Virus record (IMG/VR): IMGVR_UViG_2913152634_000006
DNA: 39,545 nt
Strand: one strand, 5' to 3'
Source: a virus
Lineage: Duplodnaviria; Heunggongvirae; Uroviricota; Caudoviricetes
Shown: in pieces, positions 5,112 to 27,982 of the stretch
How the letters are laid out: every line of letters starts with the position of its first letter
How positions within the stretch are numbered: position 1 is the stretch's first letter
Notes under the pieces: model-generated
Databases searched by the model: none
Seen by the model: the letters and a program-made list of their open reading frames with translations, nothing else
What the model was told of the DNA's origin: nothing
Position numbers and translations under genes: made by a program

Positions 5112-5117
5112 ATCACT

Positions 5118-8974: not shown

Positions 8975-8991
8975 ATTTAAGGATGATATAG

Positions 8992-10689: not shown

Positions 10690-10767
10690 TGTATTCTAAT
10701 AGGATATAAACATCAAAGCTATATTTTTTACACATATCAAGAGTAAAAAATAATTTAACTTTTACAT

Positions 10768-10803
10768 AACGACCTCTTTTACAAATAAGTAGAAAAGGTC
10801 GTT
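10768..10803 (+). terminator. Strong hairpin (15-bp imperfect inverted repeat, 6-nt loop) ending the methyltransferase-ATPase operon
   Basis: aacgacctcttttac / gtagaaaaggtcgtt read directly, 80 nt downstream of the ATPase stop; no canonical long U-tract. Confidence 0.45.
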
Positions 10804-10928
10804 ATAACTCTCATCTCCATAGCATGTAATTTTCTTTGCATATTTTCACATAACAGTCAGGGATGTATTTATAAGCAACGTCGTATACATAGGCTCAATT
10901 TTTCTATAAATAAGCACTCCGTTCGGTT

Positions 10929-10955
10929 TGCACAATAGTGCACAAATTTGCACAA
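10929..10955. repeat. Three direct TGCACAA repeats at exact 10-bp phasing, followed by a T7 run
   Basis: tgcacaa at 10929, 10939, 10949; lies in the A-to-Q interval where P2-like phages carry cos; candidate protein-binding array. Confidence 0.5.
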
Positions 10956-11379
10956 TTTTTTTGAACGACTTTTTGCCCTTCCGGCCCGCATGGCGGCTGG
11001 ATCCGTCAAGGATCCGTGCGTGCACAAAAAAACGCGCTTTTTCTGCGCGCAGGTGACGGGGGAACAGCCCGCGTTTCAGGGGGTAAATAGCATTCCCTGA
11101 GCGATGTCGCAGCGACACAACAGAATGGCCATATTTCTCACGCTGAGCGTGAAAAAGATGTGAGGGCTTTTGATTTGATGGGGGGAAAGGTAAGGCCGTC
11201 AAAATCGCACTGAGGCGGCGAGAACATACAGTCAACGCGGTAGGATTGCGTAAGAGTCTGACCGTCGATGGTGGCGATAAACTGGAAGGCGTCGTGAAAT
11301 TATCTGATTGATACAGGAGCTGGAGAGTCGGGGCATAAATTTTTTATGCCCCGGCGAAGCAGCAGACAAGCGAAGCGCG

Positions 11380-12429
11380 TCAGGATGTGGGCTGGGTATC
11401 TAACAGTGCGTAAGGGTTAAAGCGGATCACCTCTTCGCCAAGCCAGTCATTGATGTGCTTCATGGCCTCCATGACGGGCATCAGCTCGTTAATTGCGTAA
11501 ACCCGCGCGGCCTTCTCCACATCACCAAACGCACTTTTTTCACCCGGCATCGCCCCCATCAGTTGCGGCGGAACGCGGTGCGCAGCCAGCACATCATCAC
11601 GGGATGCCGCCTTAACATTCATGAACTCATCCTTTGCTGTGATCTGCTGGAACGGCAAAATTTGCACACCTTCTTTGCCACCGTTGGGCGCATGAATGAG
11701 CACGTTTTTAAATGCACCACCACCACGCGCACCCTGTAACGTTTCTTTCAGGGAGTCCATGCTTTCGCGGTTTACCTGCGCTGCACCGATGTAGATGATG
11801 CACCCGGCGTGGGATCCGTTGTCGTAATACAGTTTTCTGAACATGTCCGCCGAATGAGACAGGCTGGCCGAGAGTAATGCGCCGAGATATTCCGGCATGC
11901 CGTAGATTTCCTGGTTAATATCCGGATTCATCAGGTGGCACACTTTGCCAGGGCGAAACTGAAACGCGTCCTTGCCATCCTGCACATACCACCATGATTC
12001 AAGATCGCTTCCGCGTCGCATGTATTTCGCCAGGGCGTGCCGTAATTTAAGCGGTTCGCCGAGCATATTGCTCCGAAGCTCAAGGAATGCGTTACCGAAC
12101 ACAAACCAGTCCAGCGCCAGCGCCGAGAAATCCTGCCGGGAAAGCAGCGGGTGCGGAATATAGCAACCGAGCAATACATTGCGCTTAAAGTAAAGCGCAG
12201 ACTGATGCCAGGACGTTTGCCGGGCAGCTCTTGCCAGACCGTACCAGTCCACCGGGGTTTCATACCACCGCCCGTTATCAGCACAGTACATATTGTCCAG
12301 CAGGTCATGCCCGGTCAGGCGATAAGGACCATCAAATGTGAATGCACTGAGCGATGATTCTTTCCTGAGCGCATCAGCGAGATCAATGCGTGAACTCATG
12401 CGCACTTTTTTATTTTTTCTGCTCATCAA
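11380..12429 (-). CDS. Q: Portal (capsid portal protein, gpQ)
   Basis: 349 aa; size and position (divergent from the O-N-M-L capsid block, immediately downstream of the large terminase with a 4-nt overlap) match P2 Q. Confidence 0.85.
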   Translation of the reverse strand: MMSRKNKKVRMSSRIDLADALRKESSLSAFTFDGPYRLTGHDLLDNMYCADNGRWYETPVDWYGLARAARQTSWHQSALYFKRNVLLGCYIPHPLLSRQDFSALALDWFVFGNAFLELRSNMLGEPLKLRHALAKYMRRGSDLESWWYVQDGKDAFQFRPGKVCHLMNPDINQEIYGMPEYLGALLSASLSHSADMFRKLYYDNGSHAGCIIYIGAAQVNRESMDSLKETLQGARGGGAFKNVLIHAPNGGKEGVQILPFQQITAKDEFMNVKAASRDDVLAAHRVPPQLMGAMPGEKSAFGDVEKAARVYAINELMPVMEAMKHINDWLGEEVIRFNPYALLDTQPTS

Positions 12430-14177
12430 AACTCCATAACCGTGAAACGCTCGTTTTCTCCTTCGCCGCCAATCGGTTCGTTAATGACAGCAAGCATGGT
12501 TGCCCACGCAAGGTCGCCGTGGCTGATCCCCCTCGCGCGGTCCGTTTCGTAAGTGATAAAGCCGCCCGGTGTTTTCACCTTACGCACGGCGTTAAAGGCC
12601 GCGACCAGCTCGCGTTCGGCGCGATCGTATTCCCACCGCCCGGCACGCATTATTTGCAGCATTTTCAGTACCAGCGACCGTTTTGATGACAGCGTGAAGG
12701 TGTACGGAATAGCAGCAGGGAAAAACCGTTTCACTATCTGATAAACAGCCTCCCCGTTCCCGCCTGTCACATCAATGCCGATGTGTTCCACGTTGTAGCG
12801 ATACGTGAACTCTTCAATGACTCTGGCCTGTTCTTCAAACTCCAGCCCCTGAACGCGTCGCGTCTCCACCGTTCGAAAACGGCCTCCAGGAACAGCCGGA
12901 GGAACCACCACGGACACAGCGCCGCTGTCGCCGTTGCCACTGCTGCCGTTTGCGTCATACCCAATCCATACCGGACGATTCCCCATCGGGCGGGGAGCAA
13001 AAGGTTTCCAGTCTTTCCAGTCGTCGTATCCGTCAACACCGCAGCCAATCAGGATATTCAGGTTAAATGCCGATACCCCTTCGCGGACAAACTCACACAT
13101 ATAGAGATTGAGGAACTCGTCTTCGGTGTTTTCATCACGAATTTCATCAATATCGGTGTGTTTCCAGCCGTGATTAACCACATCTTCCAGCGTGACAATC
13201 TGCCGCCACGTCCGGTCAGGGCAGATAAGCCCGTTATGCAGCGTTTTCCAGTCCACAGGAAAACGCTGGCGTTTATGCGTGGCCTTTTTCTCGTTCCAGC
13301 GGTCGCCGTTCCAGTAGGCGTATGCCTCGTGCGTTTCGGTGGATGGCGTGGAGAAGTAGGTGCGCCGCAGTCCGCTGAGGGTTGCCATAGCGCCAGCCAC
13401 CTTGCGCAGTTCAGCAAAGCGACTGACCCAGAAAAATTCATCAAAATAAAAATTGCCCGTATAGGACTGTGCCGATGCAGCAGAAGTGCCGAGAAAATGC
13501 AGCTCTGCGCCGTTGGAGAGGATGATTTTATCGCCCCCTTTCAGCTCCACATCAACTTCAGCCGCAGCCTTCTGAATAATGCTTTTAAACTGGAACGCCT
13601 GACGACGCGACGCAGACAAAAAAATCTGGTTACGCTGGTAAGGTTGCGCCACATCGTCACGCAGCGCCATCAGCAGAGCTTCCTGTGCAAAATACCAGGT
13701 CGCCCCAATCTGTCGGGATTTCAGGATCATCCTGTTACGTATCCCGGCTTCCCTGCAAAGGGTCAGGGAGTCAAACCAGCCCCGCTGATGCCACTCCAGC
13801 CTGCTGATGATTTTTTCCCGCAGTGCGGCAATCTGTTCCGGCGTGAAATGATTTTTAAGTTTTTTCGCCCGGCCTTTCTTTCCTGTGGCCGCCGCATCCG
13901 GCTGGCCATCATGCAGTTTTTTAAGCTGCCGGGTCAGCAGGTCTATTTCCTTGAAGTCACCACCTGTTTTATTCTGTTTTTCAGTGAGCTGGATGAGGCG
14001 CGCATCGATGGACTGCGTGACACGCTGCACGGGTGGCGTTTCATCCCACTGGTCGCGTTTTTTCCACGCATAAATCGTGTTCGGGTTTATTCCCATCAGA
14101 CGTGATATTTCTGCGGGCGGATAACCCTGCCAGTAAAGTTGACGCGCACGCTGGCGCACAAAAGCGTCCTGAATCAT
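12426..14177 (-). CDS. P: Terminase large subunit (ATPase, gpP)
   Basis: 583 aa; N-terminal HTH-like segment and ATPase region; P-Q same-strand pair divergent from the O gene as in P2. Confidence 0.9.
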   Translation of the reverse strand: MIQDAFVRQRARQLYWQGYPPAEISRLMGINPNTIYAWKKRDQWDETPPVQRVTQSIDARLIQLTEKQNKTGGDFKEIDLLTRQLKKLHDGQPDAAATGKKGRAKKLKNHFTPEQIAALREKIISRLEWHQRGWFDSLTLCREAGIRNRMILKSRQIGATWYFAQEALLMALRDDVAQPYQRNQIFLSASRRQAFQFKSIIQKAAAEVDVELKGGDKIILSNGAELHFLGTSAASAQSYTGNFYFDEFFWVSRFAELRKVAGAMATLSGLRRTYFSTPSTETHEAYAYWNGDRWNEKKATHKRQRFPVDWKTLHNGLICPDRTWRQIVTLEDVVNHGWKHTDIDEIRDENTEDEFLNLYMCEFVREGVSAFNLNILIGCGVDGYDDWKDWKPFAPRPMGNRPVWIGYDANGSSGNGDSGAVSVVVPPAVPGGRFRTVETRRVQGLEFEEQARVIEEFTYRYNVEHIGIDVTGGNGEAVYQIVKRFFPAAIPYTFTLSSKRSLVLKMLQIMRAGRWEYDRAERELVAAFNAVRKVKTPGGFITYETDRARGISHGDLAWATMLAVINEPIGGEGENERFTVMEF

Positions 14178-14331
14178 TGCTCCCCCTGAGTAATTACAGG
14201 AAGATTACCCGCGCGCGAAACTGTTCTCCTTAACCCCCTGTTCTGGCCGTTTTCTTACAACAAAAGCCCTTTGTATCAGCCTGTTACGCTTTGCCATCAT
14301 GACTGAAGAACCAGTCAGAGGGGCAAAAACT

Positions 14332-15168
14332 ATGGCTAATGAAAAAAAGACATCCCGCAAAAAGTTTCGCGTGGCTGTCTCCGGTGTAACGGCAGACGGG
14401 CGCGAAATCAACGGCGACATGCTGAAAGCTGCCGCCACCAGTTATAACCCGTCCGTTTATGGTGCACGTGTGAATATTGAGCACATCCTGTCACCACTCC
14501 CCGGTAGCGAGTTTTCCGCTATGGGCGATGTTGTGGGGTTGAGCACCGAAGACATAACCGATGGCCCGCTGGCAGGTCGCACGGCACTGTATGCCGAAAT
14601 TGAGCCGACCGCTCGCATGATGTCCCTGCTTAACGATGGTAAAAAAATTTACTCCAGTATTGAGCTGGAACCACAGTCAACCATCACGGGAGGTCCTTAC
14701 CTGCGCGGGCTGGCAATGACCGACACCCCTGCCAGCCTGGGCACGGAACGTCTGGCCTTTGCGGCACAACAACGTATGCAACTGATGACATTCAACTGTC
14801 AGCAGGGAGACGTGGCGATGTTTACCGCCGCTATGGAGTCAGAACTTATCGAACTCACCGAACAACGTCAGGAAGAAGGCACCCAGTGGTTTAACCGCGT
14901 TATGGGGATTATTGGCCGTGGCCGCAAAGCGGATGACGCCAGTTTCTCCCGTATTCAGGAAGCGGTGGAAGGTGTCGCAACGTCACAGGCCGACATTATC
15001 GACCGTTTTAATGTGCTGGAAACCCGCCATCAGCAGGACAGCCAGAAAATCACTTTACTGACCACAGAGCTGGCAGCACTGAAGGAAAAACTGCGCACGC
15101 AGGACGGCGATCCGCAGAACCGGTTCACCGCAACGGGCGCAGCCTCCGACCAGCTGGCTGACTTCTGA
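14332..15168 (+). CDS. O: Capsid scaffolding protein (gpO)
   Basis: Start chosen at ATG 14332 (SD-like AGAGGGG upstream; MANEKKTSRKKFRVAVSGVTADGREING...VYGARVNIEH resembles recalled P2 O N-terminus); ORF-track start 14299 lacks an SD. Confidence 0.8.
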   Translation: MANEKKTSRKKFRVAVSGVTADGREINGDMLKAAATSYNPSVYGARVNIEHILSPLPGSEFSAMGDVVGLSTEDITDGPLAGRTALYAEIEPTARMMSLLNDGKKIYSSIELEPQSTITGGPYLRGLAMTDTPASLGTERLAFAAQQRMQLMTFNCQQGDVAMFTAAMESELIELTEQRQEEGTQWFNRVMGIIGRGRKADDASFSRIQEAVEGVATSQADIIDRFNVLETRHQQDSQKITLLTTELAALKEKLRTQDGDPQNRFTATGAASDQLADF

Positions 15169-15191
15169 TAAGACAAAGGAGCAAATTTTTT

Positions 15192-16244
15192 ATGAATCTG
15201 GTGATGTCAGATATTACCCGCAACAAGCTGGGTTGCTATATGGCGCAGCAGGCGTCGCTTAACAATATCCCGGTTTCTGCGCTGGTATCGCGATTTACCG
15301 TAGAACCCTCGGTGCAGCAGCGTTTTGAAAACGCCTCAAAGGAAAGCACCGAATTTACAAAAAGAATTAACGTGATCGGCGTGACCGACCAGAAAGGCGA
15401 AAAAATCCTCCTGGACACCACCGGGCCAATTGCACGCACGAATACCAGTTATGACGGCACAAAACGCCGTAACCCGAATAACGTGGTTGATCTGAAAAAC
15501 CGCAAATACCAGTGCGAACAGGTGAACTACGACACGTTTATTTCATATCCGCAGCTTGATGCCTGGGCGGCACATCCTGATTTTCAGTCCCGCATCAGCG
15601 CACAGATTGCCCGACAGGTGGCGCTTGACCGCATCATGATCGGTTTCAACGGCACGTCTCACGCGGATGAGTCCAACTTCAGCACCAACAAGCTGCTTCA
15701 GGACGTTAACGTGGGCTGGCTGGAGCACATCAGAACCGACGCCAGCGAGCGCGTTATGAATGACGTGACGCTGACCTCCCGCAACATGGACAACACCGTG
15801 GCGCACGCGGGTAAGTATGCGAACGCTGATGCACTGGTACAGGACGCACGCTCATCCCTGCTGGATGAATGGCACAAGGAAGCTGACGACCTCGTGGTGA
15901 TTATGGGGCGCAACCTGTTTAACTCGCTGCGTCTGCCCGTGCTGAACAGCATCAGCGGCCAGAATCCCAATGCGGAATTACTTGCCGGGCAGCTCATCCT
16001 GTCATCGCGCACCATTGGCGGGCTGGGCGTGTTCCTTGCGCCGTTCTTCCCGGATGCAACGATGCTGATCACCTCGTTCAACAACCTGTCGATTTACTGG
16101 CAGAAAGGTTCAATGCGTCGCCTGATGAAAGACGAGCCGGAATACAACCGCATCGCCACCTACCAGTCCATCAATGACGCTTATGTCGTTGAAGACTATG
16201 GCAAGTGCGCGATGGTCACTGGTCTGAAGTTCGCCGACAGCTAA
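15192..16244 (+). CDS. N: Major capsid protein (gpN)
   Basis: 350 aa; FTVEPSVQQRF...RINVIGVTDQKGEKI resembles recalled P2 N (FTVEPSVTQTL...RINIVPVSEMKGEKI); position after the scaffold gene. Confidence 0.9.
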   Translation: MNLVMSDITRNKLGCYMAQQASLNNIPVSALVSRFTVEPSVQQRFENASKESTEFTKRINVIGVTDQKGEKILLDTTGPIARTNTSYDGTKRRNPNNVVDLKNRKYQCEQVNYDTFISYPQLDAWAAHPDFQSRISAQIARQVALDRIMIGFNGTSHADESNFSTNKLLQDVNVGWLEHIRTDASERVMNDVTLTSRNMDNTVAHAGKYANADALVQDARSSLLDEWHKEADDLVVIMGRNLFNSLRLPVLNSISGQNPNAELLAGQLILSSRTIGGLGVFLAPFFPDATMLITSFNNLSIYWQKGSMRRLMKDEPEYNRIATYQSINDAYVVEDYGKCAMVTGLKFADS

Positions 16245-16289
16245 TCAACTCACGGCGGGCATCATGCCCGCCAGTAACGGAGAGAACAA

Positions 16290-17090
16290 ATGATTACTCC
16301 TGCACAGCAACACTGGCAGAACGTGATGGCACAGCGCGCAGGCCGGGCGAATGAAGGCGTGGACCACGCCGCGCGTACCGCGCATGAAGAGGTGCTGTAT
16401 CGTCTGCGTCTGGCACAAGCCCGGCTTAAGGGCGTACAGGCCAGAAGCGCGAAAGCCGCCATCAAAAAAGAGTTGTTGCCGGACTTTTCCGGCTGGATTG
16501 AGGGAACGCTGGAGGCTGACGGCGGGCAGCAGGATGAAGTGATTGCCACGCTGATGGTGTGGGCGATTGACTGCGGCGATCTTCCGCTGGCGCTGCGTAT
16601 TGGTGCGTATGTGGTCCGTCACAACCTCATCATGCCGGATAACTTTGGCCGTACTGCTGCCACGGTACTGACCGAAGAAATCTGCAACCCGGTACTGACG
16701 CAGGCCGGGGCGGATGCCGACGCGGATTTGTCCGCCTTTATCGAACCACTGGACACCCTCCGGAAGATTGTCACCGACCAGGACATGCCGGACGAAGTAC
16801 GCGCCAAATTATGCAAGGCGTGCGCCTTTGCCCGTCGTGGTCTGAGCGATGCAGACAACATGGCCTTATCACTGAAGCTGCTGCGCGAAGCGATGCACCT
16901 GAACCCGAACGCAGGTGTGAAACGCGAGATTGCAACCCTTTCCCGCGCCCTGAAAAAAGCCGATTCCGCAGCCGAACCAGAAGACGCCAGCGCACAGCAG
17001 GCGCAGGACGAAAGCAGCAAAAGTAAAAAGACAACGCGGAAGCCTGCAACACGAAAAACCACCGCGACGCAGAAGGCGAAGCGCGGTTAA
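16290..17090 (+). CDS. M: Terminase small (endonuclease) subunit (gpM)
   Basis: 266 aa; KKELLP, MPDEVRAKL and a basic K/R-rich C-terminal tail as in P2 M. Confidence 0.85.
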   Translation: MITPAQQHWQNVMAQRAGRANEGVDHAARTAHEEVLYRLRLAQARLKGVQARSAKAAIKKELLPDFSGWIEGTLEADGGQQDEVIATLMVWAIDCGDLPLALRIGAYVVRHNLIMPDNFGRTAATVLTEEICNPVLTQAGADADADLSAFIEPLDTLRKIVTDQDMPDEVRAKLCKACAFARRGLSDADNMALSLKLLREAMHLNPNAGVKREIATLSRALKKADSAAEPEDASAQQAQDESSKSKKTTRKPATRKTTATQKAKRG

Positions 17091-17192
17091 CGACTGACCC
17101 CGTCAGCGGGCGGCGTGTGCGGTGTTCCGGTTTGACTCCGTGACCGTTTACACCGCGCACCCACCGCCCGATTTTTTTCAGGAGTGAACCCC

Positions 17193-17687
17193 ATGAGTAT
17201 GGTTGCCAGAACTGAACCCAGACCCGCAGAGGACGACATCACCGATACCGATGATGGCGATACCCGCATTTCAGCGGGTGCATTCTGGCCGGATATTGTG
17301 CTGCGCGAGCTGCGTCTGGCGGTACGACTGCCGGGCCGCGTAACCACCTCCCGCCTGCTGCATACTGCCACCGGGGCTGTGGCACACGTTACCCGCGAGC
17401 TGGAAGCATGGCAGCAGGAACAGCAGGCAGCTGGCCATCAGACGCTGGCCGATGTTCCGGCACCCGTAATTAACGGAGAAAGCGTCAATCTCTGGCACTG
17501 GCGCAATGCTGTTTATACCGCCACACGCGCCCTGATTCTGGAGCGTTACCGCGATGCGGACACAACGGACAAGGGCGACCGCCGGGCGGACGCACTGGAT
17601 ATACAGACATCGGATTTGTGGCGCGATGTGAGCTGGGCCATCTCTGACATTCTGTGCCGCCCGCGAATCTTTGCGGAGTTGTGCTGA
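17193..17687 (+). CDS. L: Head completion/stabilisation protein (gpL)
   Basis: ATG 17193 sits 8 nt after AGGAG (GTG 17184 is the alternative); size and position as P2 L. Confidence 0.8.
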   Translation: MSMVARTEPRPAEDDITDTDDGDTRISAGAFWPDIVLRELRLAVRLPGRVTTSRLLHTATGAVAHVTRELEAWQQEQQAAGHQTLADVPAPVINGESVNLWHWRNAVYTATRALILERYRDADTTDKGDRRADALDIQTSDLWRDVSWAISDILCRPRIFAELC

Positions 17688-17887
17688 TGAAAGTGAAGGC
17701 ACTGGAAGGCGACACCGTGGATTCGCTCTGTTTCCGGTACTACGGCACGACGCAGGGCGTCACCGAAAAGGTGCTGGATGCCAACCCCGGACTCTGTCAG
17801 CAGGTATTTCTGGACGCCGGGCAGGAAGTGGAGATGCCGGAGCCGGAGAAGAAGAAACGAGAAATGATTCAGTTGTGGGGGGAGTAG
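17687..17887 (+). CDS. X: Tail protein X (LysM-like)
   Basis: 66 aa from ATG 17687, overlapping the L stop (TGATG); MKVKALEGDTVDSLCFRYYG is LysM-like as in P2 X. Confidence 0.7.
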   Translation: MKVKALEGDTVDSLCFRYYGTTQGVTEKVLDANPGLCQQVFLDAGQEVEMPEPEKKKREMIQLWGE

Positions 17888-17889
17888 CA

Positions 17890-18213
17890 GTGAGCACCAT
17901 TCAAACAGGGATCACAGAGCAGGTTATTGCGTGGCTCTTTGACCACCTGCCAACGGTGTATGCAGTAGGCGCGGCGGTCAGCATTTCCGCGCTGATGAGT
18001 CTTTATGACGGACGAACACTGGTTCAGACCGTAACGGGATCGCTGGCGTGCGGCGTTCTTGCCATGGCCGTGGCCGGGTCGTTGCGCTTCTTCGGTTTTC
18101 CTGAAGATGCCGTGACGTTTATCGGCGCATCAATCGGTTTTATGGGCGCAGAGAAAGCACGCGACAAGGTTATTGCAGCCTTTAATCGCAGGGTGAAGGA
18201 GAAGGACGAATGA
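17890..18213 (+). CDS. Y: Holin (gpY-like)
   Basis: GTG 17890 after GGGGGGAG; 107 aa with hydrophobic helices and a charged C-terminus; precedes the endolysin with ATGA overlap. Confidence 0.6.
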   Translation: MSTIQTGITEQVIAWLFDHLPTVYAVGAAVSISALMSLYDGRTLVQTVTGSLACGVLAMAVAGSLRFFGFPEDAVTFIGASIGFMGAEKARDKVIAAFNRRVKEKDE

Positions 18214-18602
18214 GCAACACATTTAAATTCAGCAGCCGGAGCGAAAAGAATTTGCAGGGCGTAAATCCTGATCTGGTGAAAGTGACCCGACGGGCACTGG
18301 AAATTTCGGAAGTGGATTTTGGTATCACCGAAGGGTTGCGCAGCCGTTACCGCCAGAAGCAACTTGTGGCCACAGGTAAGAGCCAGACCATGAACAGCCG
18401 CCACCTTACGGGACATGCCGTGGATGTTGTGGCTTATATCGGCAGCCAGGTGTCATGGGAGTGGCCGCTGTACGAAAAAATCGCAGCAGCATTCAGACAG
18501 GCCAGCCGGGAACTGAATATTCCGGTGGAATGGGGCGGCGACTGGAAGACCCTGAAAGACGGACCGCATTTTCAGTTACCACACGGAGCCTATCCGGCAT
18601 GA
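18210..18602 (+). CDS. Endolysin, M15-family L-alanyl-D-glutamate peptidase type
   Basis: 130 aa; SRHLTGHAVD and DGPHFQL match the zinc-ligand pattern (H...D...H) of VanY/M15 peptidase endolysins; not the P2 K lysozyme type. Confidence 0.8.
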   Translation: MSNTFKFSSRSEKNLQGVNPDLVKVTRRALEISEVDFGITEGLRSRYRQKQLVATGKSQTMNSRHLTGHAVDVVAYIGSQVSWEWPLYEKIAAAFRQASRELNIPVEWGGDWKTLKDGPHFQLPHGAYPA

Positions 18603-19006
18603 AGCTCTGGCCCACGCTGGGCGTCGCTTTCCTTCTGATTGCCGCATGGGGAACATCCATGCGTCTGTCGTGGTCGCTGGGCCGGGAGAACGCCAGAAAC
18701 GAAGCGCAGGCCAGCGCCCTGAAAAGCACCGTCGACAACCTGAATATCATCAGCACCGGGGTACAGGATATGCAGCAGGTGCTGGCGCAACTCCGCGTGG
18801 AAAATCAACAGCGAAATCAGGACGGAGAGGCCAGACGTGAACAGCTACGCAACGATATTGCAAAAGATGAATGCGCCCACGCTTTGCCTGACGCTCGTTT
18901 TACTGACAGGTTGCGCAGGCACGCAGAACGCGCCACGGCCAGCGCCGTCAGTCCGGCTTATACCGCAGACGCTGACCATACCGGTAACACCTCCCCCCTT
19001 CCCTGA
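18599..19006 (+). CDS. Rz-like i-spanin (LysB-like)
   Basis: In-frame ATG 18599 (MKLWPTLGVAFLLIAAWGT... N-terminal TM then charged coiled-coil-like region); the C-terminal extent is uncertain. Confidence 0.5.
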   Translation: MKLWPTLGVAFLLIAAWGTSMRLSWSLGRENARNEAQASALKSTVDNLNIISTGVQDMQQVLAQLRVENQQRNQDGEARREQLRNDIAKDECAHALPDARFTDRLRRHAERATASAVSPAYTADADHTGNTSPLP

Positions 19007-19157
19007 CACTCCCACATGGGGAAATCTCGGTATATGGGGCGACCGCCTTCTGGATGCACTGGAAACCTGTAACGCGGATAAACGGGCCATTGAATTACTG
19101 GAACAGCGCAGGCTGCAACGACTGAACAACGAGGACAACAACCATGCTGAAAACTGA
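18867..19157 (+). CDS. Rz1-like o-spanin lipoprotein (LysC-like), overlapping the i-spanin in another frame
   Basis: Signal peptide with lipobox LLTGC (MNAPTLCLTLVLLTGCAG) and a proline-rich mature region; embedded/overlapping arrangement typical of Rz/Rz1. Confidence 0.55.
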   Translation: MNAPTLCLTLVLLTGCAGTQNAPRPAPSVRLIPQTLTIPVTPPPFPDTPTWGNLGIWGDRLLDALETCNADKRAIELLEQRRLQRLNNEDNNHAEN

Positions 19158-19611
19158 TTCCCTGCGTGAAGCCATGACCTGTTCATGCCGATGGTGTCAG
19201 GCCAACCCGGAAAAATTCACCATTTTCGTGGAGAGCGGCAACATTGAAACGACCGGAGAAACGCCCTCGTTTGTTTACCGCTATCAGATGGTGATGTTTG
19301 TCATGGATTACGCCGGGGAGCTGGACGACCTCACGCTGCCGCTGCTGGCGTGGTTATCCGAAAATCAGCCACAGTTGTTGCTCAACCCTGAGCGTAATCA
19401 GGACATCAAATTCTCCGCCGTTATCAATGACGATGACAGCGCCGATCTCCTGTTTACGCTCCCCCTGCGGGAACGCGTTCGCATCACGCGCAGCAGTCAG
19501 GGCACACCGCAGGCAGAACACCTGCCGGAGCCAAAACCCCGCCTGCCCTCTTCCGAAGGCGACTGGTCGCATGTATTCCAGGATGTGACGTGGTGTGAAA
19601 GCGATGGATAA
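19144..19611 (+). CDS. R: Tail completion protein R
   Basis: 155 aa (same length as P2 R), position after the lysis cassette. Confidence 0.8.
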   Translation: MLKTDSLREAMTCSCRWCQANPEKFTIFVESGNIETTGETPSFVYRYQMVMFVMDYAGELDDLTLPLLAWLSENQPQLLLNPERNQDIKFSAVINDDDSADLLFTLPLRERVRITRSSQGTPQAEHLPEPKPRLPSSEGDWSHVFQDVTWCESDG

Positions 19612-20239
19612 GGCATTCACCCGCGTGGATGAAACCTTTGAGGCCATCCGCGACAGCCTGAATCAGCAGGCCATCAATAACATCGCCAGAAAGCTGGCAC
19701 AGGATTTACGCCGCGCCCAGCAGGCGCGCATCCGGTCACAGAAAGCGCCGGACGGGACCGCATGGACACCGCGCAGACGCCGCGTAACCCGGATACAGGA
19801 ACGCATTCGCTTTATCTGGAATAACGAAGCACGCACGCTGAAAAACTGGCATCACGACACGGGGAAATACGGGCGAACCATTACCGGGTGGGATGAGGAT
19901 AAAAACAATATCCGCACGTTTTACCGGGATGACATCGACCGTTTTCTGGAAATACGCACCCGGCGCATCAACCAGGACAGCACAAAGCGCGTCCCCATGT
20001 TCGTAAAACTGCGCACCGCCCGCTACCTGAAAGCCCGTGCAGATGCTTCCGGTGTGACGGTGGGTTACAGCGGCGTGGCCGCACGTATTGCCCGCGTTCA
20101 TCAGTTCGGTGAGCGCGATCAGGTTGCGCCGGGCATTTTCACCGATTACCCGGTACGTGAGCTGTTGGGCATCAGTCAGGCAGATGAACGCCTGATTTAT
20201 AACACGGTGCTGGGCCGGATTGCGGAGGCTGTACGGTGA
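19604..20239 (+). CDS. S: Tail completion / virion morphogenesis protein S
   Basis: ATG 19604 overlaps the R stop; position between R and V. Confidence 0.7.
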   Translation: MDKAFTRVDETFEAIRDSLNQQAINNIARKLAQDLRRAQQARIRSQKAPDGTAWTPRRRRVTRIQERIRFIWNNEARTLKNWHHDTGKYGRTITGWDEDKNNIRTFYRDDIDRFLEIRTRRINQDSTKRVPMFVKLRTARYLKARADASGVTVGYSGVAARIARVHQFGERDQVAPGIFTDYPVRELLGISQADERLIYNTVLGRIAEAVR

Positions 20240-20817
20240 GCGCAGAACTCATGCGACTGCTGAGCAATATCATCCGCACCGGGATCATCTCTGAAGTTGA
20301 TGAGAAGTCCTGGCGCGTGCGCGTTCGCAGCGGCGAACTGGAAACAGGCTGGTTGCGCTGGAACACCACGCGCGCGGGGGCCTTCAATGTGTGGCTGCCG
20401 CCATCACCAGGCGAACAGGTGGTAATTGCCTGCATTGGCGGCAACCCGGAAACCGCCATGATAATTGGCAGCCTGTGGAGTGATGCCAATCCGGCCCCCG
20501 GCAAAAGCCTGAAAGAAATCGTGATCAGCGCGCCGGACGGCGCGGTGTTCCGCTACGACGCGGACGCAGGCGCACTGAGCGCCAGCGGCATGAAAACGGC
20601 CACTTTACAGGCATCCGTCAGCGTGAAACTGGACACGCCCGTCGTGGAATGCACAAACCTTCTGAGAACGGCGACGCTTGACGTCACAAAAGGAGGAAAG
20701 ATGAGCGGCAATATCACGCACAGCGGCGGCAACTTCACCTCAAACGGCATTACCGTGCATACGCATAAACACGGTGGCGTGAAAGGTGGCAGCGATTCGA
20801 CAGGAGGCCCGCAGTGA
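20236..20817 (+). CDS. V: Baseplate spike/assembly protein V
   Basis: 193 aa, GTG start overlapping the S stop; glycine-rich C-terminus; synteny S-V-W-J-I. Confidence 0.8.
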   Translation: MSAELMRLLSNIIRTGIISEVDEKSWRVRVRSGELETGWLRWNTTRAGAFNVWLPPSPGEQVVIACIGGNPETAMIIGSLWSDANPAPGKSLKEIVISAPDGAVFRYDADAGALSASGMKTATLQASVSVKLDTPVVECTNLLRTATLDVTKGGKMSGNITHSGGNFTSNGITVHTHKHGGVKGGSDSTGGPQ

Positions 20818-21164
20818 CAACCCGCTACACAGGAATGAATCCGGACGGGACAGGAAACCTGAACGATATGGAGCACCTGAAACAGTCAGTCAGGGATATC
20901 CTGACCACCCCGCTGGCAAGCCGGGTTATGCGACGGGAATATGGCAGCCTTGTGCCTGATTTGATTGACGAACCCATGAATAACACCACGCGTCTGCAAT
21001 GCATGAGTGCTGCCGTGATTGCGCTGACACGATGGGAACCCCGCATTGCCCTGGATGCCATCGACGTTGTCTGGAAAGCGGGAGGCCGCGCCGGGGTGAC
21101 GCTGTCGGGCACTGTCATGCAGACCATGCAGAATGTTGAATTAACCATCACGCTAAGGGAGTAA
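20814..21164 (+). CDS. W: Baseplate protein W (T4 gp25-like)
   Basis: 116 aa (P2 W is 115 aa); 4-nt overlap with V. Confidence 0.8.
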   Translation: MTTRYTGMNPDGTGNLNDMEHLKQSVRDILTTPLASRVMRREYGSLVPDLIDEPMNNTTRLQCMSAAVIALTRWEPRIALDAIDVVWKAGGRAGVTLSGTVMQTMQNVELTITLRE

Positions 21165-21167
21165 ATC

Positions 21168-22064
21168 ATGCCCGCCGTTGACCTTTCACAGTTACCGGAC
21201 CCCGCCATCATCGCGGAGCCTGACTTTGAGGCAATTCTGGCTGACACAAAGGCCATGATAATTGCGGCTTATCCCGCCGAACAGCGTGAAGCCGTTTCCG
21301 CCGCGCTGGAGCTGGAATCGGAACCCCTTAACGTTATCGCTCAAACCATGTCTTTTCGTGAAATGCTGTTACGCCAGCGGGTTAACGAGGGGGCACGCGC
21401 CTGCATGTTAAGCCACAGCGCCGGGACAGACCTGGACAACCTCGCGGGCAATATGAACACAAAGCGCCTGGTTATCACTCCGGCAACGGATACCACCGAC
21501 GCGGTGATGGAGAGCGACACATCGCTGAGACTGCGGGCGCAGCGGGCGTACGACGGCCTGAGTGTTGCTGGCCCGTCAGGTGCATACGAGTATTTTGCCC
21601 GCAGCGCCAGCGGTCTGGTGCGTGATGCGCGGGCTATCAGTCCGTCTCCGGCAAATGTGACGGTTTCCATTCTGTCCACTGAAGGCGACGGCACAGCAAC
21701 GGAGGCGTTGCTTAATACCGTTCGCGCCGTTCTGAATGCAGAGGACACCCGCCCGGTGGCCGACCGCCTGACCGTACAGAGCGCCAGAATCGTGACATGG
21801 CGGCTGAATGCAAAACTGTACTTTTACCCCGGTCCGGAATCCGAACCTATTCTGGCTGCGGCGGAATCGTCGTTCAGGAAGTGGCTGGCTGAGCAGGGGC
21901 TTATCGGTCAGGACGTGGCGTTGTCCGCCATTGCTGCCGCACTGCATGTGCACGGTGTGCAACGCGTGGAGATAATCGAACCCACACAGAATATGGCCAT
22001 CAGCGACATACAGGCGGCGCGCTGTGAGTCATTCACCATCAGCGAAGGTGGGCGCAATGAGTAA
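21168..22064 (+). CDS. J: Baseplate assembly protein J
   Basis: 298 aa, synteny and size as P2 J. Confidence 0.85.
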   Translation: MPAVDLSQLPDPAIIAEPDFEAILADTKAMIIAAYPAEQREAVSAALELESEPLNVIAQTMSFREMLLRQRVNEGARACMLSHSAGTDLDNLAGNMNTKRLVITPATDTTDAVMESDTSLRLRAQRAYDGLSVAGPSGAYEYFARSASGLVRDARAISPSPANVTVSILSTEGDGTATEALLNTVRAVLNAEDTRPVADRLTVQSARIVTWRLNAKLYFYPGPESEPILAAAESSFRKWLAEQGLIGQDVALSAIAAALHVHGVQRVEIIEPTQNMAISDIQAARCESFTISEGGRNE

Positions 22065-22587
22065 TTCGTTGTTACCACCATCAGCCAGCAATTTCATGCG
22101 TTGTGCCGAAGCCGTCGGAACACGCATTACAGACATTCCGGTAGACCTCAACACACTGTGGTCGCCGGATACCTGCCCGGTGCATCTGCTGCCCTATCTC
22201 GCCTGGGCATTTTCCGTTGACCGCTGGGATCGCAACTGGCCGGAAGAGACAAAGCGACAGGTTATTCGTGATGCATGGCTGATACACCGACACAAAGGGA
22301 CCATCAGAGCACTGCGCAGGGCCATTGAGCCGCTGGGATACCTCATTCGCGTGTCTGAGTGGTGGGAGTTCGGCGGAGAACCGGGAACATTTACCGTTGA
22401 AGTCGGCACACTGGACAGTGGCGTGACGGAGGAAATGTATCTGGAAATGGAGCGGTTGATTGCTGATGCCCGTCCGGTCAGCCGCCACATGACAGGGCTG
22501 AATATCATTCAGGAAATTCCGGGGGATATTTTCGCAGCGGCGGCAACTTATGACGGTGAAGTTATTACCATTTATCCGGACGATTAA
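22057..22587 (+). CDS. I: Baseplate/tail protein I
   Basis: ATG 22057 overlapping the J stop by 8 nt; 176 aa (P2 I is 176 aa). Confidence 0.75.
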   Translation: MSNSLLPPSASNFMRCAEAVGTRITDIPVDLNTLWSPDTCPVHLLPYLAWAFSVDRWDRNWPEETKRQVIRDAWLIHRHKGTIRALRRAIEPLGYLIRVSEWWEFGGEPGTFTVEVGTLDSGVTEEMYLEMERLIADARPVSRHMTGLNIIQEIPGDIFAAAATYDGEVITIYPDD

Positions 22588-22589
22588 GC

Positions 22590-24749
22590 ATGAGTACCAC
22601 AACACGAAAATTTAAAACCGTTATCACCGATACAGGTGCAAAAAAATTAGCTCAGGCAGCCGCGCCAGATGGTAAGCCTGTCCGCCTGACTCATATGGCC
22701 GTGGGCGACGGTGGCGGCACGTTGCCCACACCAGACAGTAAGCAGACCCGTCTGGTGCATGAGGTGTGGCGACACACTGTTAATCGCGTCATCCTGGACG
22801 CAACACATCAGAACCGCATTATTGCGGAGCTGGTTATACCTCCTGAAACGGGCGGATTCTGGATCCGGGAAATTGGTGTATTTGATGAGCACGGCGATTT
22901 AATCGCGGTGGGCAATACTGCCGAAAGTTACAAGCCAACCGTTGCCGAGGGGTCCGGACGTGCACAAACATTTCGCACCATTCTGACCGTATCCAGCACT
23001 GCCAGCGTGGCGCTTACCGTGGATAACACCATGGTGATGGCCACAGTGGATTACGTGGATGACAAACTGAAAGAGCATGAACAGTCACGACGTCACCCGG
23101 ATGCCTCGCTGACCGCAAAAGGCTTTGTTCAACTCAGTAGCGCCACTAACAGCGATTCTGAAACGCTGGCCGCAACGCCGAAAGCGGTTAAGGCCGCGTA
23201 TGACCTGGCTAACGGAAAATATACCGCTCAGGACGCCACGACGGCACGAAAAGGGATAGTCCAGCTCAGCAGTGCAACCAACAGCACGTCTGAAACGCTG
23301 GCAGCGACACCAAAAGCGGTTAAGGCGGTAATGGATGAAACGAACAAGAAAGCCCCATTAAACAGCCCGGCACTGACCGGAACGCCAACAACACCAACTG
23401 CACAACAGGGAACGAATAATACCCAAATCGCAAGCACGGCTTTCGTTATGACCGCGATTGCCGCACTTGTAGACTCTTCACCTGACGCACTGAACACGCT
23501 GAACGAGCTGGCGGCGGCGCTGGGCAACGACCCGAATTTTGCGACCACCATGACTAACGCGCTTGCGGGTAAGCAACCGAAAGATGCCACCCTGACGGCG
23601 CTGGCCGGGCTTGCTACTGCGGCAGACAGGTTTCCGTATTTTACGGGGAATGATGTTGCCAGTCTGGCAACCCTAACAGAAGTCGGGCGGGATATTCTTG
23701 CGAAATCGACCGTTGCCGCTGTTATCGAATACCTCGGTTTACAAGAAACGGTAAATCAGGCTTCTGGCGCATTACAGAAAAACCAGAACGGCGCAGATAT
23801 TCCCGATAAAAAACTATTCCTGCGTAATATCGGCACAACAAATTCAACAACAATGTCTTTTAGTGGTGGTGCTGGATGGTTCAAACTGGCAACTGTAACA
23901 ATGCCACAAGCCAGTTCCGTGGTTTACATAAACCTGATTGGTGGCGCAGGGTATAACGTTGGCTCCCCGCAGCAAGCAGGCATCTCTGAGCTGGTTCTGC
24001 GTGCAGGAAATGGAAATCCAAAAGGTATTACTGGTGCATTATGGCGACGGACCTCGGTTGGATTTACTAATTTTGCATGGGTGAATACATCCGGTGATAC
24101 CTATGACATTTATGTAGAAATAGGTAATTACGCCACAGGTGTTAATATCCAGTGGGATTATACAAAGGATGCAACTGTACAAATTCATACATCACCAACT
24201 TATACAGCGAATAAACCAACAGGCCTGACAGATGGAACTGTATATGTAATTTACAGTTCGCACATTAAACCGACTGCTGCTGAGGTTGGGGCGTTGTCAT
24301 TATCTGGCGGTCAATTGAATGGTGCATTGGGTATCGGAACATCCAGTGCTCTTGGCGGTAACTCGATTGTTTTGGGTGATAATGACACGGGATTTAAACA
24401 AAATGGCGACGGGTATCTGGATGTTTATGCTAATAACGTCCATGTTATGCGCTTTGTCTCCGGCGGCATTCAAAGTAATAAAACCATAAATATTACAGGG
24501 CGTGTTAACCCCTCGGATTACGGTAACTTTGATTCCCGCTATGTGAAAGATGTTCGACTTGGTTCACAGCAATATTATGGCGTGAACAACTGGCAAACAT
24601 GGAATTTCCAGTGCCCGTCAGGTCATGTATTGACTGGTATTAATGTTCAGGATACAGGGTCCAATTCTGCCGATAATATAGCGGGCGTTTATTACAGACC
24701 CGTTCAAAAGTATATAAATGGCACCTGGTATAATGTAGCGAGCGTTTAA
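22590..24749 (+). CDS. H: Tail fibre protein H (constant N-terminal part plus currently expressed variable C-terminal part)
   Basis: 719 aa; tail-fibre repeat motifs ([19 protein letters not shown] twice); C-terminal [11 protein letters not shown] shared with the inverted Hv' cassette; gix-like site inside the gene at codons about 378-386. Confidence 0.85.
23127..23330 (+). repeat. Tandem duplication of a tail-fibre collar repeat (two roughly 72-bp copies, period about 132 bp) within H
   Basis: Copy 1 at 23127-23198 and copy 2 at 23259-23330, encoding [22 protein letters not shown]. Confidence 0.5.
23722..23747. promoter_or_regulatory. gix/cix-like recombination site, left (inside H)
   Basis: ttatcgaatacctcggtttacaagaa; 23/26 identical to the reverse complement of the right site and close to the recalled Mu gix sequence; central dinucleotide TC at 23734-23735. 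Confidence 0.6.
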
Positions 24750-24750
24750 T

Positions 24751-25275
24751 ATGATGCACTTAAAGAACATAAAAGCGGGTAACGCTAAAACACTGGAACA
24801 GTATGAGTTAACAAAGAAACACGGAGTTATCTGGCTTTACTCTGAGGACGGAAAAAACTGGTATGAGGAAGTGAAAAACTTTCAGCCAGACACCATAAAG
24901 ATTGTTTACGATGAAAATAATATTATTGTCGCCATCACCAAAGATGCCTCCACGCTTAACCCTGAAGGTTTTAGCGTAGTTGAGGTTCCCGATATAACAA
25001 CCAATCGTCGGGCCGATGATTCCGGTAAGTGGATGTTTAAGGACGGAGCTGTGGTTAAACGGATTTATACAGCTGACGAACAACAACAGGCCGAATCACA
25101 AAAGGCCGCGTTACTTTCCGAAGCAGAAAGCGTTATTCAGCCACTGGAGCGCGCTGTCAGGCTGAATATGGCGACGGATGAGGAACGCGCACGACTGGAA
25201 TCATGGGAACGCTACAGTGTTCTGGTCAGCCGTGTGGATACGGCAAATCCTGAATGGCCACAAAAGCCTGAATAA
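24751..25275 (+). CDS. G: Tail fibre assembly chaperone G
   Basis: 174 aa, starts 2 nt after the H stop; paralogous to the inverted G' (shared MMHLKNI...GKNWYEE...[22 protein letters not shown]). Confidence 0.8.
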
Positions 25276-25282
25276 AAATTAA

Positions 25283-25298
25283 GGCCCGATAGCGGGCC
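25283..25298. terminator. Short GC hairpin (GGCCCG-atag-CGGGCC) between convergent G and G'
   Basis: Perfect 6-bp stem read directly; bidirectional position between convergent genes; weak flanking U-tracts. Confidence 0.4.
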
Positions 25299-25303
25299 TT
25301 GTC

Positions 25304-25837
25304 TCATTCTGGTTGTTCGGGAAACGTTACTGGCAGGCTGGAGGTGTCTGTAGATTCGACCTTCTGCGCATAGAGCATCCACTCGGTTAATTTTTGTTTA
25401 TTCTCGTCGGAAATGATGCCCAGCCGTAGCTGTGAGTCCCATAGCTGGGTTTTATCCCTGACAAGTTGCACCAGGCTTTGCTTTTCATTCTCTGCCTGCT
25501 GCCTCTGTTCCTCTTCGGTATAAGTTCGCTTTATCACTACGCCATCTTTGAACATCCATTTACCCGAAATATCAGCCCGGCGATTTGCTGTAATATCAGG
25601 AACCTCAACGACGCTTGCGCCTTCCGGATTAATTGCTGAAACATCCTTTTCAATACAAATAATAACGCCGTTGTAGTCATAGACCATTTTCAACGTATCA
25701 GTCTGGAAATTCTTTTGTTCCTCATACCAGTTTTTTCCATCCTCTGTATAAAGCCATTTGATGTTAAATTGTTTCGTTAGCTGGTATTGCTCTTTTGTTT
25801 TAGGGTTGCCAGCTGTAATATTTTTTAAGTGCATCAT
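25304..25837 (-). CDS. Alternative tail fibre assembly chaperone G'
   Basis: 177 aa, paralogue of G on the opposite strand inside the invertible segment. Confidence 0.8.
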   Translation of the reverse strand: MMHLKNITAGNPKTKEQYQLTKQFNIKWLYTEDGKNWYEEQKNFQTDTLKMVYDYNGVIICIEKDVSAINPEGASVVEVPDITANRRADISGKWMFKDGVVIKRTYTEEEQRQQAENEKQSLVQLVRDKTQLWDSQLRLGIISDENKQKLTEWMLYAQKVESTDTSSLPVTFPEQPE

Positions 25838-25839
25838 AA

Positions 25840-26796
25840 TTAAATACTCCCCGCGTTATACCACGTTCCATTAATGCAATACTGAATTGGCCTTGCCTGA
25901 GTTGTATCAATTAATTCATCACGGTTTCCGTTAACTGAACCAGTAACGACATAACCTGACCTGTCAGACCAGCCGGGACCATTCCATGTCTGAACAGATG
26001 ACAGACCGCCCAGGCGAATACCTGTAATAAACCTTGAGTTACATTCTGCCTGCGTATATGCACCAACATCCCCCGCAGAGGGTTTGCGGGTTGTGGTGTA
26101 AAACTCTGACCAGTTAGCTTCAAAGCCATAACCATCACGCGCTGAACGATAAAAGATGCCGCCGTTCTTATAATTCACGCGGAACTGTACAGCAGGGCAA
26201 CTCCCCGCATTCATATTGAAGTGGAGGATTAATGTCGATGCACCACTGATATCTGCATCATAAACACCGCTATTCCAGTTCCAGCCAACAGCTTTATCAT
26301 TTGCGACCCTGCTTCCTGTTTGCCCTAAAGCAAATGCAGGCTGCTGGTTTTTCGTGTTGTAGTCTCGTCGCCAGCCAGGAGAATAAGCATCACCATGATT
26401 AATATAAGTGAATTGAGCGTTAGTAATTCCGCCACCGCTGGACGTGCTCGGCGTGGTAACGCGTATAGTCATTGCGCCGCGGGTGCCAATAACTTCCACC
26501 ACAGCACCTGCAAGACAAATATTTCCGCAACCTGTATCTGTAATTACCTTATTATTTGCATAAGCCCATGAGCCTTTGCACATCCAGTAAGGATGGTTAA
26601 ATGCCCCCTGACTCTCCAGCCACGAAATGAATTGTGCGGTTGTCCAGGCCTGACTATCGCCACCAATATTCAGCCATGAGCTATATGCGCGGCAGGCCCC
26701 AATATTTTTGGTGAAGGTATCTTTTCCCGGAATATCTGCGCCGTTCTGGTTTTTCTGTAATGCGCCAGAAGCCTGATTTACCGTTTCCTGTAAACC
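25840..26796 (-). CDS. Alternative tail-fibre C-terminal cassette Hv' (promoterless and start-less; expressed only after inversion fuses it to H)
   Basis: Open frame from the crossover in the right gix site to the stop at 25840; the frame is closed by TAA immediately outside the site; C-terminus IQYCINGTWYNAGSI parallels the H C-terminus; the ORF-track Met start (26583) is internal. Confidence 0.65.
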   Translation of the reverse strand, partial: GLQETVNQASGALQKNQNGADIPGKDTFTKNIGACRAYSSWLNIGGDSQAWTTAQFISWLESQGAFNHPYWMCKGSWAYANNKVITDTGCGNICLAGAVVEVIGTRGAMTIRVTTPSTSSGGGITNAQFTYINHGDAYSPGWRRDYNTKNQQPAFALGQTGSRVANDKAVGWNWNSGVYDADISGASTLILHFNMNAGSCPAVQFRVNYKNGGIFYRSARDGYGFEANWSEFYTTTRKPSAGDVGAYTQAECNSRFITGIRLGGLSSVQTWNGPGWSDRSGYVVTGSVNGNRDELIDTTQARPIQYCINGTWYNAGSI

Positions 26797-26810
26797 GAGG
26801 TTTTAGATAA
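26785..26810. promoter_or_regulatory. gix/cix-like recombination site, right (inverted relative to the left site)
   Basis: ttcctgtaaaccgaggttttagataa; its reverse complement ttatctaaaacctcggtttacaggaa is close to the recalled gix sequence. Confidence 0.6.
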
Positions 26811-26864
26811 TGGCCGTTTCCGGCCTGCATGGCATGATTTGCGCTTTTGGACGGGAGATTCAGC

Positions 26865-27452
26865 GTGCTGATTGGCTATGTAAGGGTATCAACAAATGAC
26901 CAGAATACAGACCTGCAACGAAACGCTCTTGTTTGTGCAGGATGTGAACAAATATTTGAAGATAAATTAAGCGGGACAAAGACAGACCGACCGGGATTAA
27001 GACGCGCTTTAAAGCGCCTTCAAAAAGGTGACACGCTGGTTGTCTGGAAACTGGATCGCCTCGGGCGAAGCATGAAACATCTGATTTCTCTCGTCGGGGA
27101 ACTACGGGAGCGAGGAATTAATTTTCGCAGTCTGACCGACAGCATAGATACATCTTCTCCAATGGGGCGTTTTTTCTTCCACGTGATGGGTGCCCTGGCT
27201 GAAATGGAACGTGAATTAATTGTTGAACGTACACTGGCCGGACTGGCGGCAGCACGCGCACGGGGGCGCACAGGCGGACGTCGACCGAAGCTGACAAAAG
27301 AACAGCATGAGCAAATAGCAAGGCTGATCAAAAACGGGCACGACAGAAAACAACTGGCAATAATTTACGGCATTGGTATATCGACGATTTATCGTTACCA
27401 CCCCGCAGGAGAATCAATCGGAACAATAGAGAAGAGTCAGGAAACAAAATAA
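26865..27452 (+). CDS. Serine-recombinase DNA invertase (Gin/Hin/Cin/Pin family)
   Basis: From GTG 26865 (GGGAG SD 7 nt upstream): MLIGYVRVSTNDQNTDLQRNALVCAGCEQIFEDKLSG... is near-identical over the first ~140 aa to recalled Mu Gin, including the catalytic Ser in YVRVSTNDQ; C-terminal HTH. ORF-track ATG 26847 is the alternative start. Confidence 0.9.
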   Translation: MLIGYVRVSTNDQNTDLQRNALVCAGCEQIFEDKLSGTKTDRPGLRRALKRLQKGDTLVVWKLDRLGRSMKHLISLVGELRERGINFRSLTDSIDTSSPMGRFFFHVMGALAEMERELIVERTLAGLAAARARGRTGGRRPKLTKEQHEQIARLIKNGHDRKQLAIIYGIGISTIYRYHPAGESIGTIEKSQETK

Positions 27453-27480
27453 CCGCTAATCTGACCATTAGCGGTTTTTG
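27451..27480 (+). terminator. Rho-independent terminator after the invertase gene
   Basis: aaccgctaat-ctgacc-attagcggtt followed by tttt, immediately after the invertase stop. Confidence 0.55.
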
Positions 27481-27487
27481 TGTTAAA

Positions 27488-27982
27488 TCAGAACAGCCCT
27501 TTAACTGAACTGGCCGCGCTGTTAAGAGATGATGTCACCTTATCTTTGAAGCCGGACAGCATATCGCTGAATGATGAGGATTGCAGGCGCTCCCGCAAAT
27601 CCTCATCACAGCGTTCAAGGGTCAGTGAAAATTCTATCTTTTTCGCCTTACCGTAGCGATCAAACTCGGAACGGGTCGTATTCGTTTCAGTCAGCACATA
27701 CATGCCGTAAATCTGCCCGACACCATCAATCAGAGGCCAGGGGCGTCCTGTATATGCCTGCGTGGTCAGCAACGAAAGCGACACTTCGCCACCTGTAATT
27801 TCAGGATAAAGCACGCCGGAAAGCACAATGCGATCATCACCTGCACCTATATACTGCCAGCTTGCTGAACGGTTAACGCGTTCATTTTTCACATGCCGCC
27901 AGCTTTTGTTTTGCTGTAACTGCTGATGCGGCAGTGTGCGCAGCTCAAAAACAAACATGCCGTAGATCATCATCATGACCAT
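27488..27982 (-). CDS. U: Tail protein U
   Basis: 164 aa, immediately downstream of the tape measure on the same strand; SWRH...GAGDD..I.LSG...RPWPL.DG...EFDRYG pattern as recalled for P2 U. Confidence 0.8.
   Translation of the reverse strand: MVMMMIYGMFVFELRTLPHQQLQQNKSWRHVKNERVNRSASWQYIGAGDDRIVLSGVLYPEITGGEVSLSLLTTQAYTGRPWPLIDGVGQIYGMYVLTETNTTRSEFDRYGKAKKIEFSLTLERCDEDLRERLQSSSFSDMLSGFKDKVTSSLNSAASSVKGLF

Follow-up and report, generated by a model that had tools for sequence, protein, structure and literature searches.

The 39,545-nucleotide (nt) virus record IMGVR_UViG_2913152634_000006 of IMG/VR (referred to as the window throughout) is a complete P2-type prophage, carrying integrase, replication, portal, terminase, capsid and tail genes as well as homology to the ogr region, and is P88-like (Xuanwuvirus, Peduoviridae, P2 family). 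Four overlapping genes on its plus strand, encoding a 107-amino-acid (aa) holin of the lambda S family (17890–18213), a 130-aa endolysin (18210–18602), a 135-aa inner-membrane spanin subunit (i-spanin, 18599–19006) and an outer-membrane lipoprotein subunit of the LysC family (o-spanin, 18837 or 18867 to 19157), very probably constitute a canonical three-step lysis cassette that is transcribed within the late capsid/tail operon. The family assignments of the four genes, at curated or strong thresholds (via PHROG for the i-spanin), support this reading. The initial annotation had placed the cassette at 18210–19157; its open reading frames (ORFs) proved real at these positions, but the holin gene of the same cassette had been left out.

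Judging from the families concerned, the lambda and P2 paradigms and the biochemistry of ChiX and EndoT5, lysis would proceed as follows. The holin would build up in the inner membrane until, at its programmed moment, it opened large non-specific holes. Through these the soluble, signal-less M15C zinc peptidase would reach the periplasm and cleave peptidoglycan stem peptides between L-Ala and D-Glu. With the murein mesh removed, the type-II inner-membrane i-spanin and the lipoprotein o-spanin in the outer membrane, joined via their periplasmic C-termini, would then fuse the two membranes.

A predicted L-alanyl-D-glutamate peptidase as endolysin

The product of 18210–18602 had been annotated as an M15-type peptidase with the zinc-ligand pattern of L-alanyl-D-glutamate peptidases, and both parts of this assignment were borne out. 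Profile searches returned PF13539 Peptidase_M15_4 (46 bits against a Pfam cut-off of 25) and the 'endolysin' family phrog_465 in PHROGs (E = 5e-77); NCBIfam gave no matching model for the endolysin or the spanins. Comparison with PDB sequences gave ChiX of Serratia marcescens (5opz, E = 2.5e-48), the M15C protein 23ri and LysECD7 (8q2g; PMC11267749), together with the L-alanyl-D-glutamate peptidase of phage T5 (2mxz, E = 9e-23) and Listeria Ply500 (2vo9). In ungapped alignments the endolysin is 62–63% identical to its closest solved relatives, namely 62% to ChiX over 126 residues and 62% to LysECD7.

The single-domain protein contains the zinc pattern H65-x6-D72 ... D117-x2-H120, of which H65, D72 and H120, the zinc ligands, align with H68, D75 and H123 of ChiX and with H62, D69 and H117 of LysECD7, respectively. 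D117 is the aligned counterpart of the catalytic D120 of ChiX, R44 that of its substrate arginine R47, and W112 that of W109 in EndoRB49, a Trp conserved in M15C enzymes. ChiX was identified as an L-Ala-D-Glu endopeptidase by muropeptide analysis, with His68, Asp75 and His123 as Zn ligands, an essential Asp120 and a substrate Arg47 (PMC5778951), and Trp109 is critical in EndoRB49 (PMC10487532). Like LysECD7, EndoRB49, EndoRB43 and EndoT5, the window enzyme is a globular M15C protein of ~130 aa with an H/D/H zinc site and the conserved Trp; the others derive from virulent phages of the T4-like and T5-like types, and EndoT5 is activated by Ca2+. Taken together, the profile match, the 62% identity and the active-site residues support the assignment of the 130-aa protein to M15 subfamily C as a putative peptidase of the L-Ala-D-Glu type.

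An H-x6-D...H zinc site is common to all LAS enzymes, and the description line of PF13539 reads 'D-alanyl-D-alanine carboxypeptidase', as would suit a VanY- or VanX-like D-Ala-D-Ala carboxypeptidase or dipeptidase in place of an L-Ala-D-Glu endopeptidase. We regard such an activity as very improbable, because the closest solved relatives (E ~1e-48) are ChiX, with its specificity established on muropeptides, and LysECD7, because the T5 endolysin is the next match, and because VanX is only ~16% identical to ChiX (PMC5778951). Judging by its 62% identity to ChiX, for which these properties were measured, the endolysin would cleave the L-Ala-D-Glu bond and depend on zinc.

The N-terminus of the endolysin is hydrophilic, with a maximal 17-residue hydropathy of 0.83 and neither a signal peptide nor a signal-arrest-release (SAR) sequence, which rules out a SAR or signal-peptide endolysin. 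Lacking a hydrophobic N-terminus, the protein would therefore be a cytoplasmic enzyme in need of a hole-forming holin. The contrast with P2 K drawn in the initial annotation is also justified, as K has the lambda-lysozyme fold (matches to 1am7 and 3d3d, E = 4e-44) and displays no similarity to the window enzyme. The lambda endolysin R differs as well, being a transglycosylase.

Overlapped spanins of the P2 LysB/LysC class

The i-spanin was recognised by its match to phrog_214, 'Rz-like spanin' (E = 6.2e-40). Its sole hydrophobic segment is N-terminal, within residues 1–23 (transmembrane at ~3–21), and is followed by a charged periplasmic remainder with a single Cys at position 92. No BLASTP similarity to P2 LysB was observed, and LysB itself is assigned to phrog_89, reaching no better than 2e-4 against phrog_214. 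The two proteins are functional analogues, with remote homology at most.

The o-spanin ORF is read in the +1 frame with respect to the i-spanin gene. It overlaps the last 140 nt (from ATG) or 170 nt (from GTG) of that 408-nt gene, continues for 151 nt beyond its stop codon and overlaps the start of the downstream gene, gpR, by 14 nt. The initial annotation had described an Rz/Rz1-like pair in which the o-spanin overlaps the 3' half of the i-spanin gene in a different frame. The spanin pair, the different frame and the 3' location all stand, but the overlap, at 34–42% of the i-spanin gene, is not quite a half, and the geometry supports the 'overlapped' class of P2 LysB/LysC rather than the 'embedded' class of lambda Rz/Rz1. 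The arrangement of lysB, lysC and R in P2 is the same, with the o-spanin passing the i-spanin stop into R, whereas lambda Rz1, which is also in the +1 frame, is fully embedded in Rz and does not extend past it as the window o-spanin does.

The translated ORF (18867–19157) matches PF23793 LysC, 'Rz1-like lysis system protein', at 51.5 bits against a cut-off of 27, which argues that it is not a chance ORF. Its PHROG call is 'Rz-like spanin' (3e-25), and it falls in phrog_456, the PHROG of P2 LysC, to which it is homologous with 32% identity in BLASTP (E = 3e-5). Of the two candidate starts, the first ATG (18867) has no Shine-Dalgarno sequence. GTG 18837 is the likely start, with ATG 18867 as the alternative, because GGAGAGG is located 7 nt upstream of it and because initiation there lengthens the phrog_456 match to profile positions 2–99 and strengthens it from 57.0 to 62.6 bits (+5.6).

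LLTG|C terminates the signal sequence, and the lipobox LLTGC proposed earlier was confirmed as a match to the core pattern of PROSITE PS51257, predicting a mature lipoprotein of 81 aa with Ala, not Asp, at position +2. Ten Pro residues occur within the first 35 residues of the mature protein, and its second Cys is at mature position 53. Yersinia pekkanenii has a divergent locus with holin, M15 enzyme, i-spanin and overlapped lipoprotein, in which the lipoprotein has LLSAC as its lipobox and shares the CNADK motif at the C-terminus; since ORF, lipobox and CNADK are all retained at this distance, the overlapped frame appears to be a conserved gene.

Existing annotations could be taken to say otherwise. 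GenBank entries for P88, Chuche and the Citrobacter phage Shae_phiSM contain no annotation of the o-spanin gene, and in the RefSeq versions of E. coli PV0838 and E110019 the Prokaryotic Genome Annotation Pipeline (PGAP) begins lysC at an ATA equivalent to window 18960 (2774–2971 in one locus copy). The resulting 65-aa C-terminal product lacks signal peptide and lipobox, even though the sequence contains the complete ORF including LLTGC. On such grounds 18837–19157 might be viewed as a chance frame, the phage using an i-spanin-like protein alone or no spanin. That view is the least probable of all those considered here: it is opposed by the LysC score and the PHROG shared with P2 LysC, by the perfect lipobox, the Pro-rich mature N-terminus and the good Shine-Dalgarno sequence, by the conservation in Yersinia, and by the ORF being intact in Shae_phiSM as well. 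The o-spanin is accordingly retained as a real gene, and its absence from several GenBank phage records and N-terminal truncation in some RefSeq annotations is a practical point for users of these records.

A lambda S-type holin with a single start

The holin gene (17890–18213) starts with GTG, preceded by GGGGGAG. Its product matches PF05106 Phage_holin_3_1 over the full length (71.1 bits against a cut-off of 23.8) and the holin/antiholin family phrog_126 (1.7e-35), while the stricter equivalog TIGR01594 holin_lambda of NCBIfam, at 54.5 bits, falls just below its cut-off of 55.05. A simple Kyte-Doolittle scan revealed clear hydrophobic segments at residues 20–39 and 43–70. A PDB search with the holin gave no meaningful match, and no similarity to P2 holin Y was found, Y belonging to PF04550.

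Lambda S, a member of the same family, has a dual-start antiholin motif (Met-Lys-Met), in contrast to the window holin, whose N-terminus, V(M)STIQTGITEQ, contains no second start or basic residue. An upstream in-frame GTG at 17875 adds no charge and is without a Shine-Dalgarno sequence. An internal start at Met36 (window 17995; locus position 1309 in the Chuche record) was rejected, as it likewise has no Shine-Dalgarno sequence and would delete the first transmembrane domain (TMD1); its annotation in phage Chuche is probably an artefact. A lambda-type holin lacking TMD1 is the kind of product able to act as an antiholin. In E. coli E110019, the closest relative, the holin gene (17890–18212 of its locus) is annotated as frameshifted; it is intact in the window.

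Several points weigh against the lysis-cassette reading. The i-spanin is identified solely by its PHROG match and topology, DUF2570 scoring only 17.8 bits, below the Pfam cut-off of 26.6. The third transmembrane segment of the holin (~75–88) is weak and below the cut-off used in the hydropathy scan. No antiholin was found, the holin having no dual start and the P2 antiholin LysA having no counterpart in the window, so that neither accounts for the control of lysis timing. A minor point is that the first seven residues of the o-spanin, counted from either start, contain no Lys or Arg, as the auxiliary PROSITE rule would demand. Finally, the function of the cassette is read from sequence alone. 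Against these stand the family assignments of the four genes together with the position of the cassette described below, and a lysis function remains by far the best supported interpretation.

Position among the late genes of a complete prophage

Genes gpL, gpX, holin, endolysin, i-spanin, o-spanin and gpR form a compact run, all on the plus strand, as judged from the sequence and its ORFs. The upstream neighbour is tail protein X (gpX, 17687–17887, +), with a match to PF05489 Phage_tail_X at 73.8 bits (cut-off 22) and 48% identity to P2 X, and this neighbour fixes the position of the cassette in a P2-type late operon. It is preceded by gpL (17184–17687, +; Pfam Phage_GPL, 154.7 bits against 27). 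Downstream, the tail completion protein R (gpR, 19144–19611, +) matches PF06891 P2_Phage_GpR at 136.1 bits (cut-off 25), giving the late operon order L-X-holin-endolysin-spanins-R-S. ATGA stop/start overlaps at the holin/endolysin and endolysin/i-spanin junctions suggest translational coupling.

A promoter and terminator scan of 14000–21000 gave signal counts equal to those of shuffled sequence, and the same scan detected no feature in the o-spanin gene resembling the putative attenuator in P2 lysC. Separate regulation of the cassette is thus without evidence, and the scan is consistent with transcription as part of a long late operon, as in P2. Rfam and tRNA scans gave no match in or near the cassette. 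Three minus-strand ORFs (18024–18416, 18845–19186 and 18493–18756) and an in-frame upstream extension at 18455–18598 were dismissed as spurious, with no Pfam match even at E<=1.

In the late operon of P2 the lysis genes (Y, K, lysA, lysB and lysC) are likewise flanked by X and R. P2 and the window have different holin families, endolysins and i-spanins, and only LysC, which shares the Pfam family and the PHROG of the window o-spanin, and the flanking X, R and L are recognisably homologous. The logic of holin, endolysin and spanin is also that of lambda. In P88 and other Xuanwuvirus phages and prophages, gene order and overlaps are the same as in the window, with only point differences in the cassette; it is in accessory cargo elsewhere that the window prophage differs from these P88-type relatives.

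The component families are also those of chiWXYZ of Serratia, a type 10 secretion system (T10SS), in which the holin ChiW, like that of the window, belongs to the lambda S family and has a single start, and spanin homologues are present as well (PMC4259817). Combining two spanins with an M15 endopeptidase that shares 62% identity with ChiX, the window cassette could in principle be a domesticated, non-lytic device for protein secretion. This is highly unlikely, given that it is part of the late morphogenesis operon of an entire prophage and, as in P2, has X and R as its neighbours, that the same cassette is carried by the free phages P88, Chuche and PhiR44_2, and that no gene for a secreted cargo is adjacent. 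By comparison, chiWXYZ is a chromosomal operon in a chitinase locus with a role in secretion, and its spanin genes are separate, the lipoprotein ChiY being named before the membrane-anchored ChiZ, whereas those of the window are overlapped. We likewise see only a slim chance that the cassette, which has a single-start lambda-type holin, a ChiX-like M15 peptidase and spanins and neither LysA nor a dual-start antiholin, is the direct phage progenitor of chiWXYZ-type T10SS and, if expressed in a subpopulation of the ~19% of E. coli strains that harbour it, may release proteins, not only virions.

Modular exchange of the lysis genes

The M15 gene had been suggested to reflect modular exchange of the lysis enzyme relative to P2, and a close relative of the window supports this directly. 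BLASTN of Shae_phiSM against the window gave 97.8% identity over 16290–18190 and 97.7% over 18619–20300, with nothing between. Junction alignments revealed that a 639-nt segment takes the place of window 18191–18618 (428 nt), with one breakpoint within ~23 nt of the 3' end of the holin gene and the other within the initial ~20 nt of the i-spanin gene. According to Pfam, the replacement segment encodes an endolysin with Glyco_hydro_108 (GH108) and PG_binding_3 domains. The interval 18191–18618 is accordingly an exchangeable module, in which one and the same backbone, ~98% identical on both sides, bears either an M15 peptidase or a GH108 muramidase. Among complete E. coli genomes the GH108 version occurs in 32 and the M15 version in 1007.

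Modular exchange in fact understated the case, because each part of the cassette can be exchanged, and the locus is a textbook case of mosaic lysis genes in the P2 family. Genes related to the M15 gene were found in 1326 phage records, among them T4-like, T5-like and Yersinia PY100-type phages, and at 77 genomic loci in many proteobacterial genera; most of these loci are without the holin and spanins of the window. Prophages of Enterobacter soli, Dryocola and Citrobacter sp. keep the order L-X-holin-M15-R.

Some further variants of the locus were observed. In the P2-like prophages of Enterobacter soli and Citrobacter sp., the endolysins are 71–75% identical to that of the window, and fully embedded spanins of the Rz/Rz1 type (3309–3914 and 3471–4028 of the respective loci) replace the overlapped pair, with the lipoboxes FLTGC and LLVGC inside the i-spanin ORF. 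In E. coli isolate 131, a relative disrupted by an insertion sequence, a 1.9-kb DUF6645 gene is located between lysC and gpR (3453–5330 of the locus), and the lysC/R junction is therefore a site of cargo insertion as well. Cassette variants of ~95% identity in E. coli lose similarity to the window cassette after window position ~19092.

Distribution and annotation of the cassette

The 1471-nt stretch from gpX to the o-spanin gene is 98–99% identical at the DNA level in Escherichia phages PhiR44_2, 500465-2, P88 and Chuche and in other Xuanwuvirus members. P88, PhiR44_2 and Chuche, which bear the cassette, are isolated phages that are plaque-forming or inducible (PMC5285337). Counting matches at >=80% coverage of the stretch, it was found in 1007 of 5426 complete E. 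coli genomes (~19%). RefSeq names the four products 'phage holin family protein', 'M15 family metallopeptidase', 'DUF2570 domain-containing protein' and 'Rz1-like lysis system protein LysC'. The cassette is hence an ordinary and already known one, annotated in ~1000 E. coli genomes, and its enzyme belongs to a family with several crystal structures.

Other features of the prophage

E. coli E110019 is a closer overall match to the window than PV0838. Mapping of whole-window coordinates onto PV0838 was abandoned, being valid only for 10929–23314, since the cargo regions differ. In the early region, two Rfam matches at gathering level were obtained on the plus strand, the Hfq-binding RNA isrK at 4189–4263 (63.6 bits) and the C4 antisense RNA at 4299–4386 (80.5 bits).

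An invertible host-range segment is suggested at roughly 23300–27500. Within it, window 26356–26724 matches the tail-fibre region of the PV0838 prophage at 89% in inverted orientation, and at the equivalent of ~23300–27500 E110019 carries a recombinase gene together with oppositely oriented tail-fibre and assembly genes. Accessory cargo at ~7840–10930 and ~34330–37100 varies among prophages that are nearly identical in other respects. After the replication gene, the window and E110019 encode a Dam-type methylase and an AAA ATPase, where PV0838 has ParM and partition genes; PV0838 additionally harbours a His-Xaa-Ser (hxsABCD) radical-SAM cluster near its right end.

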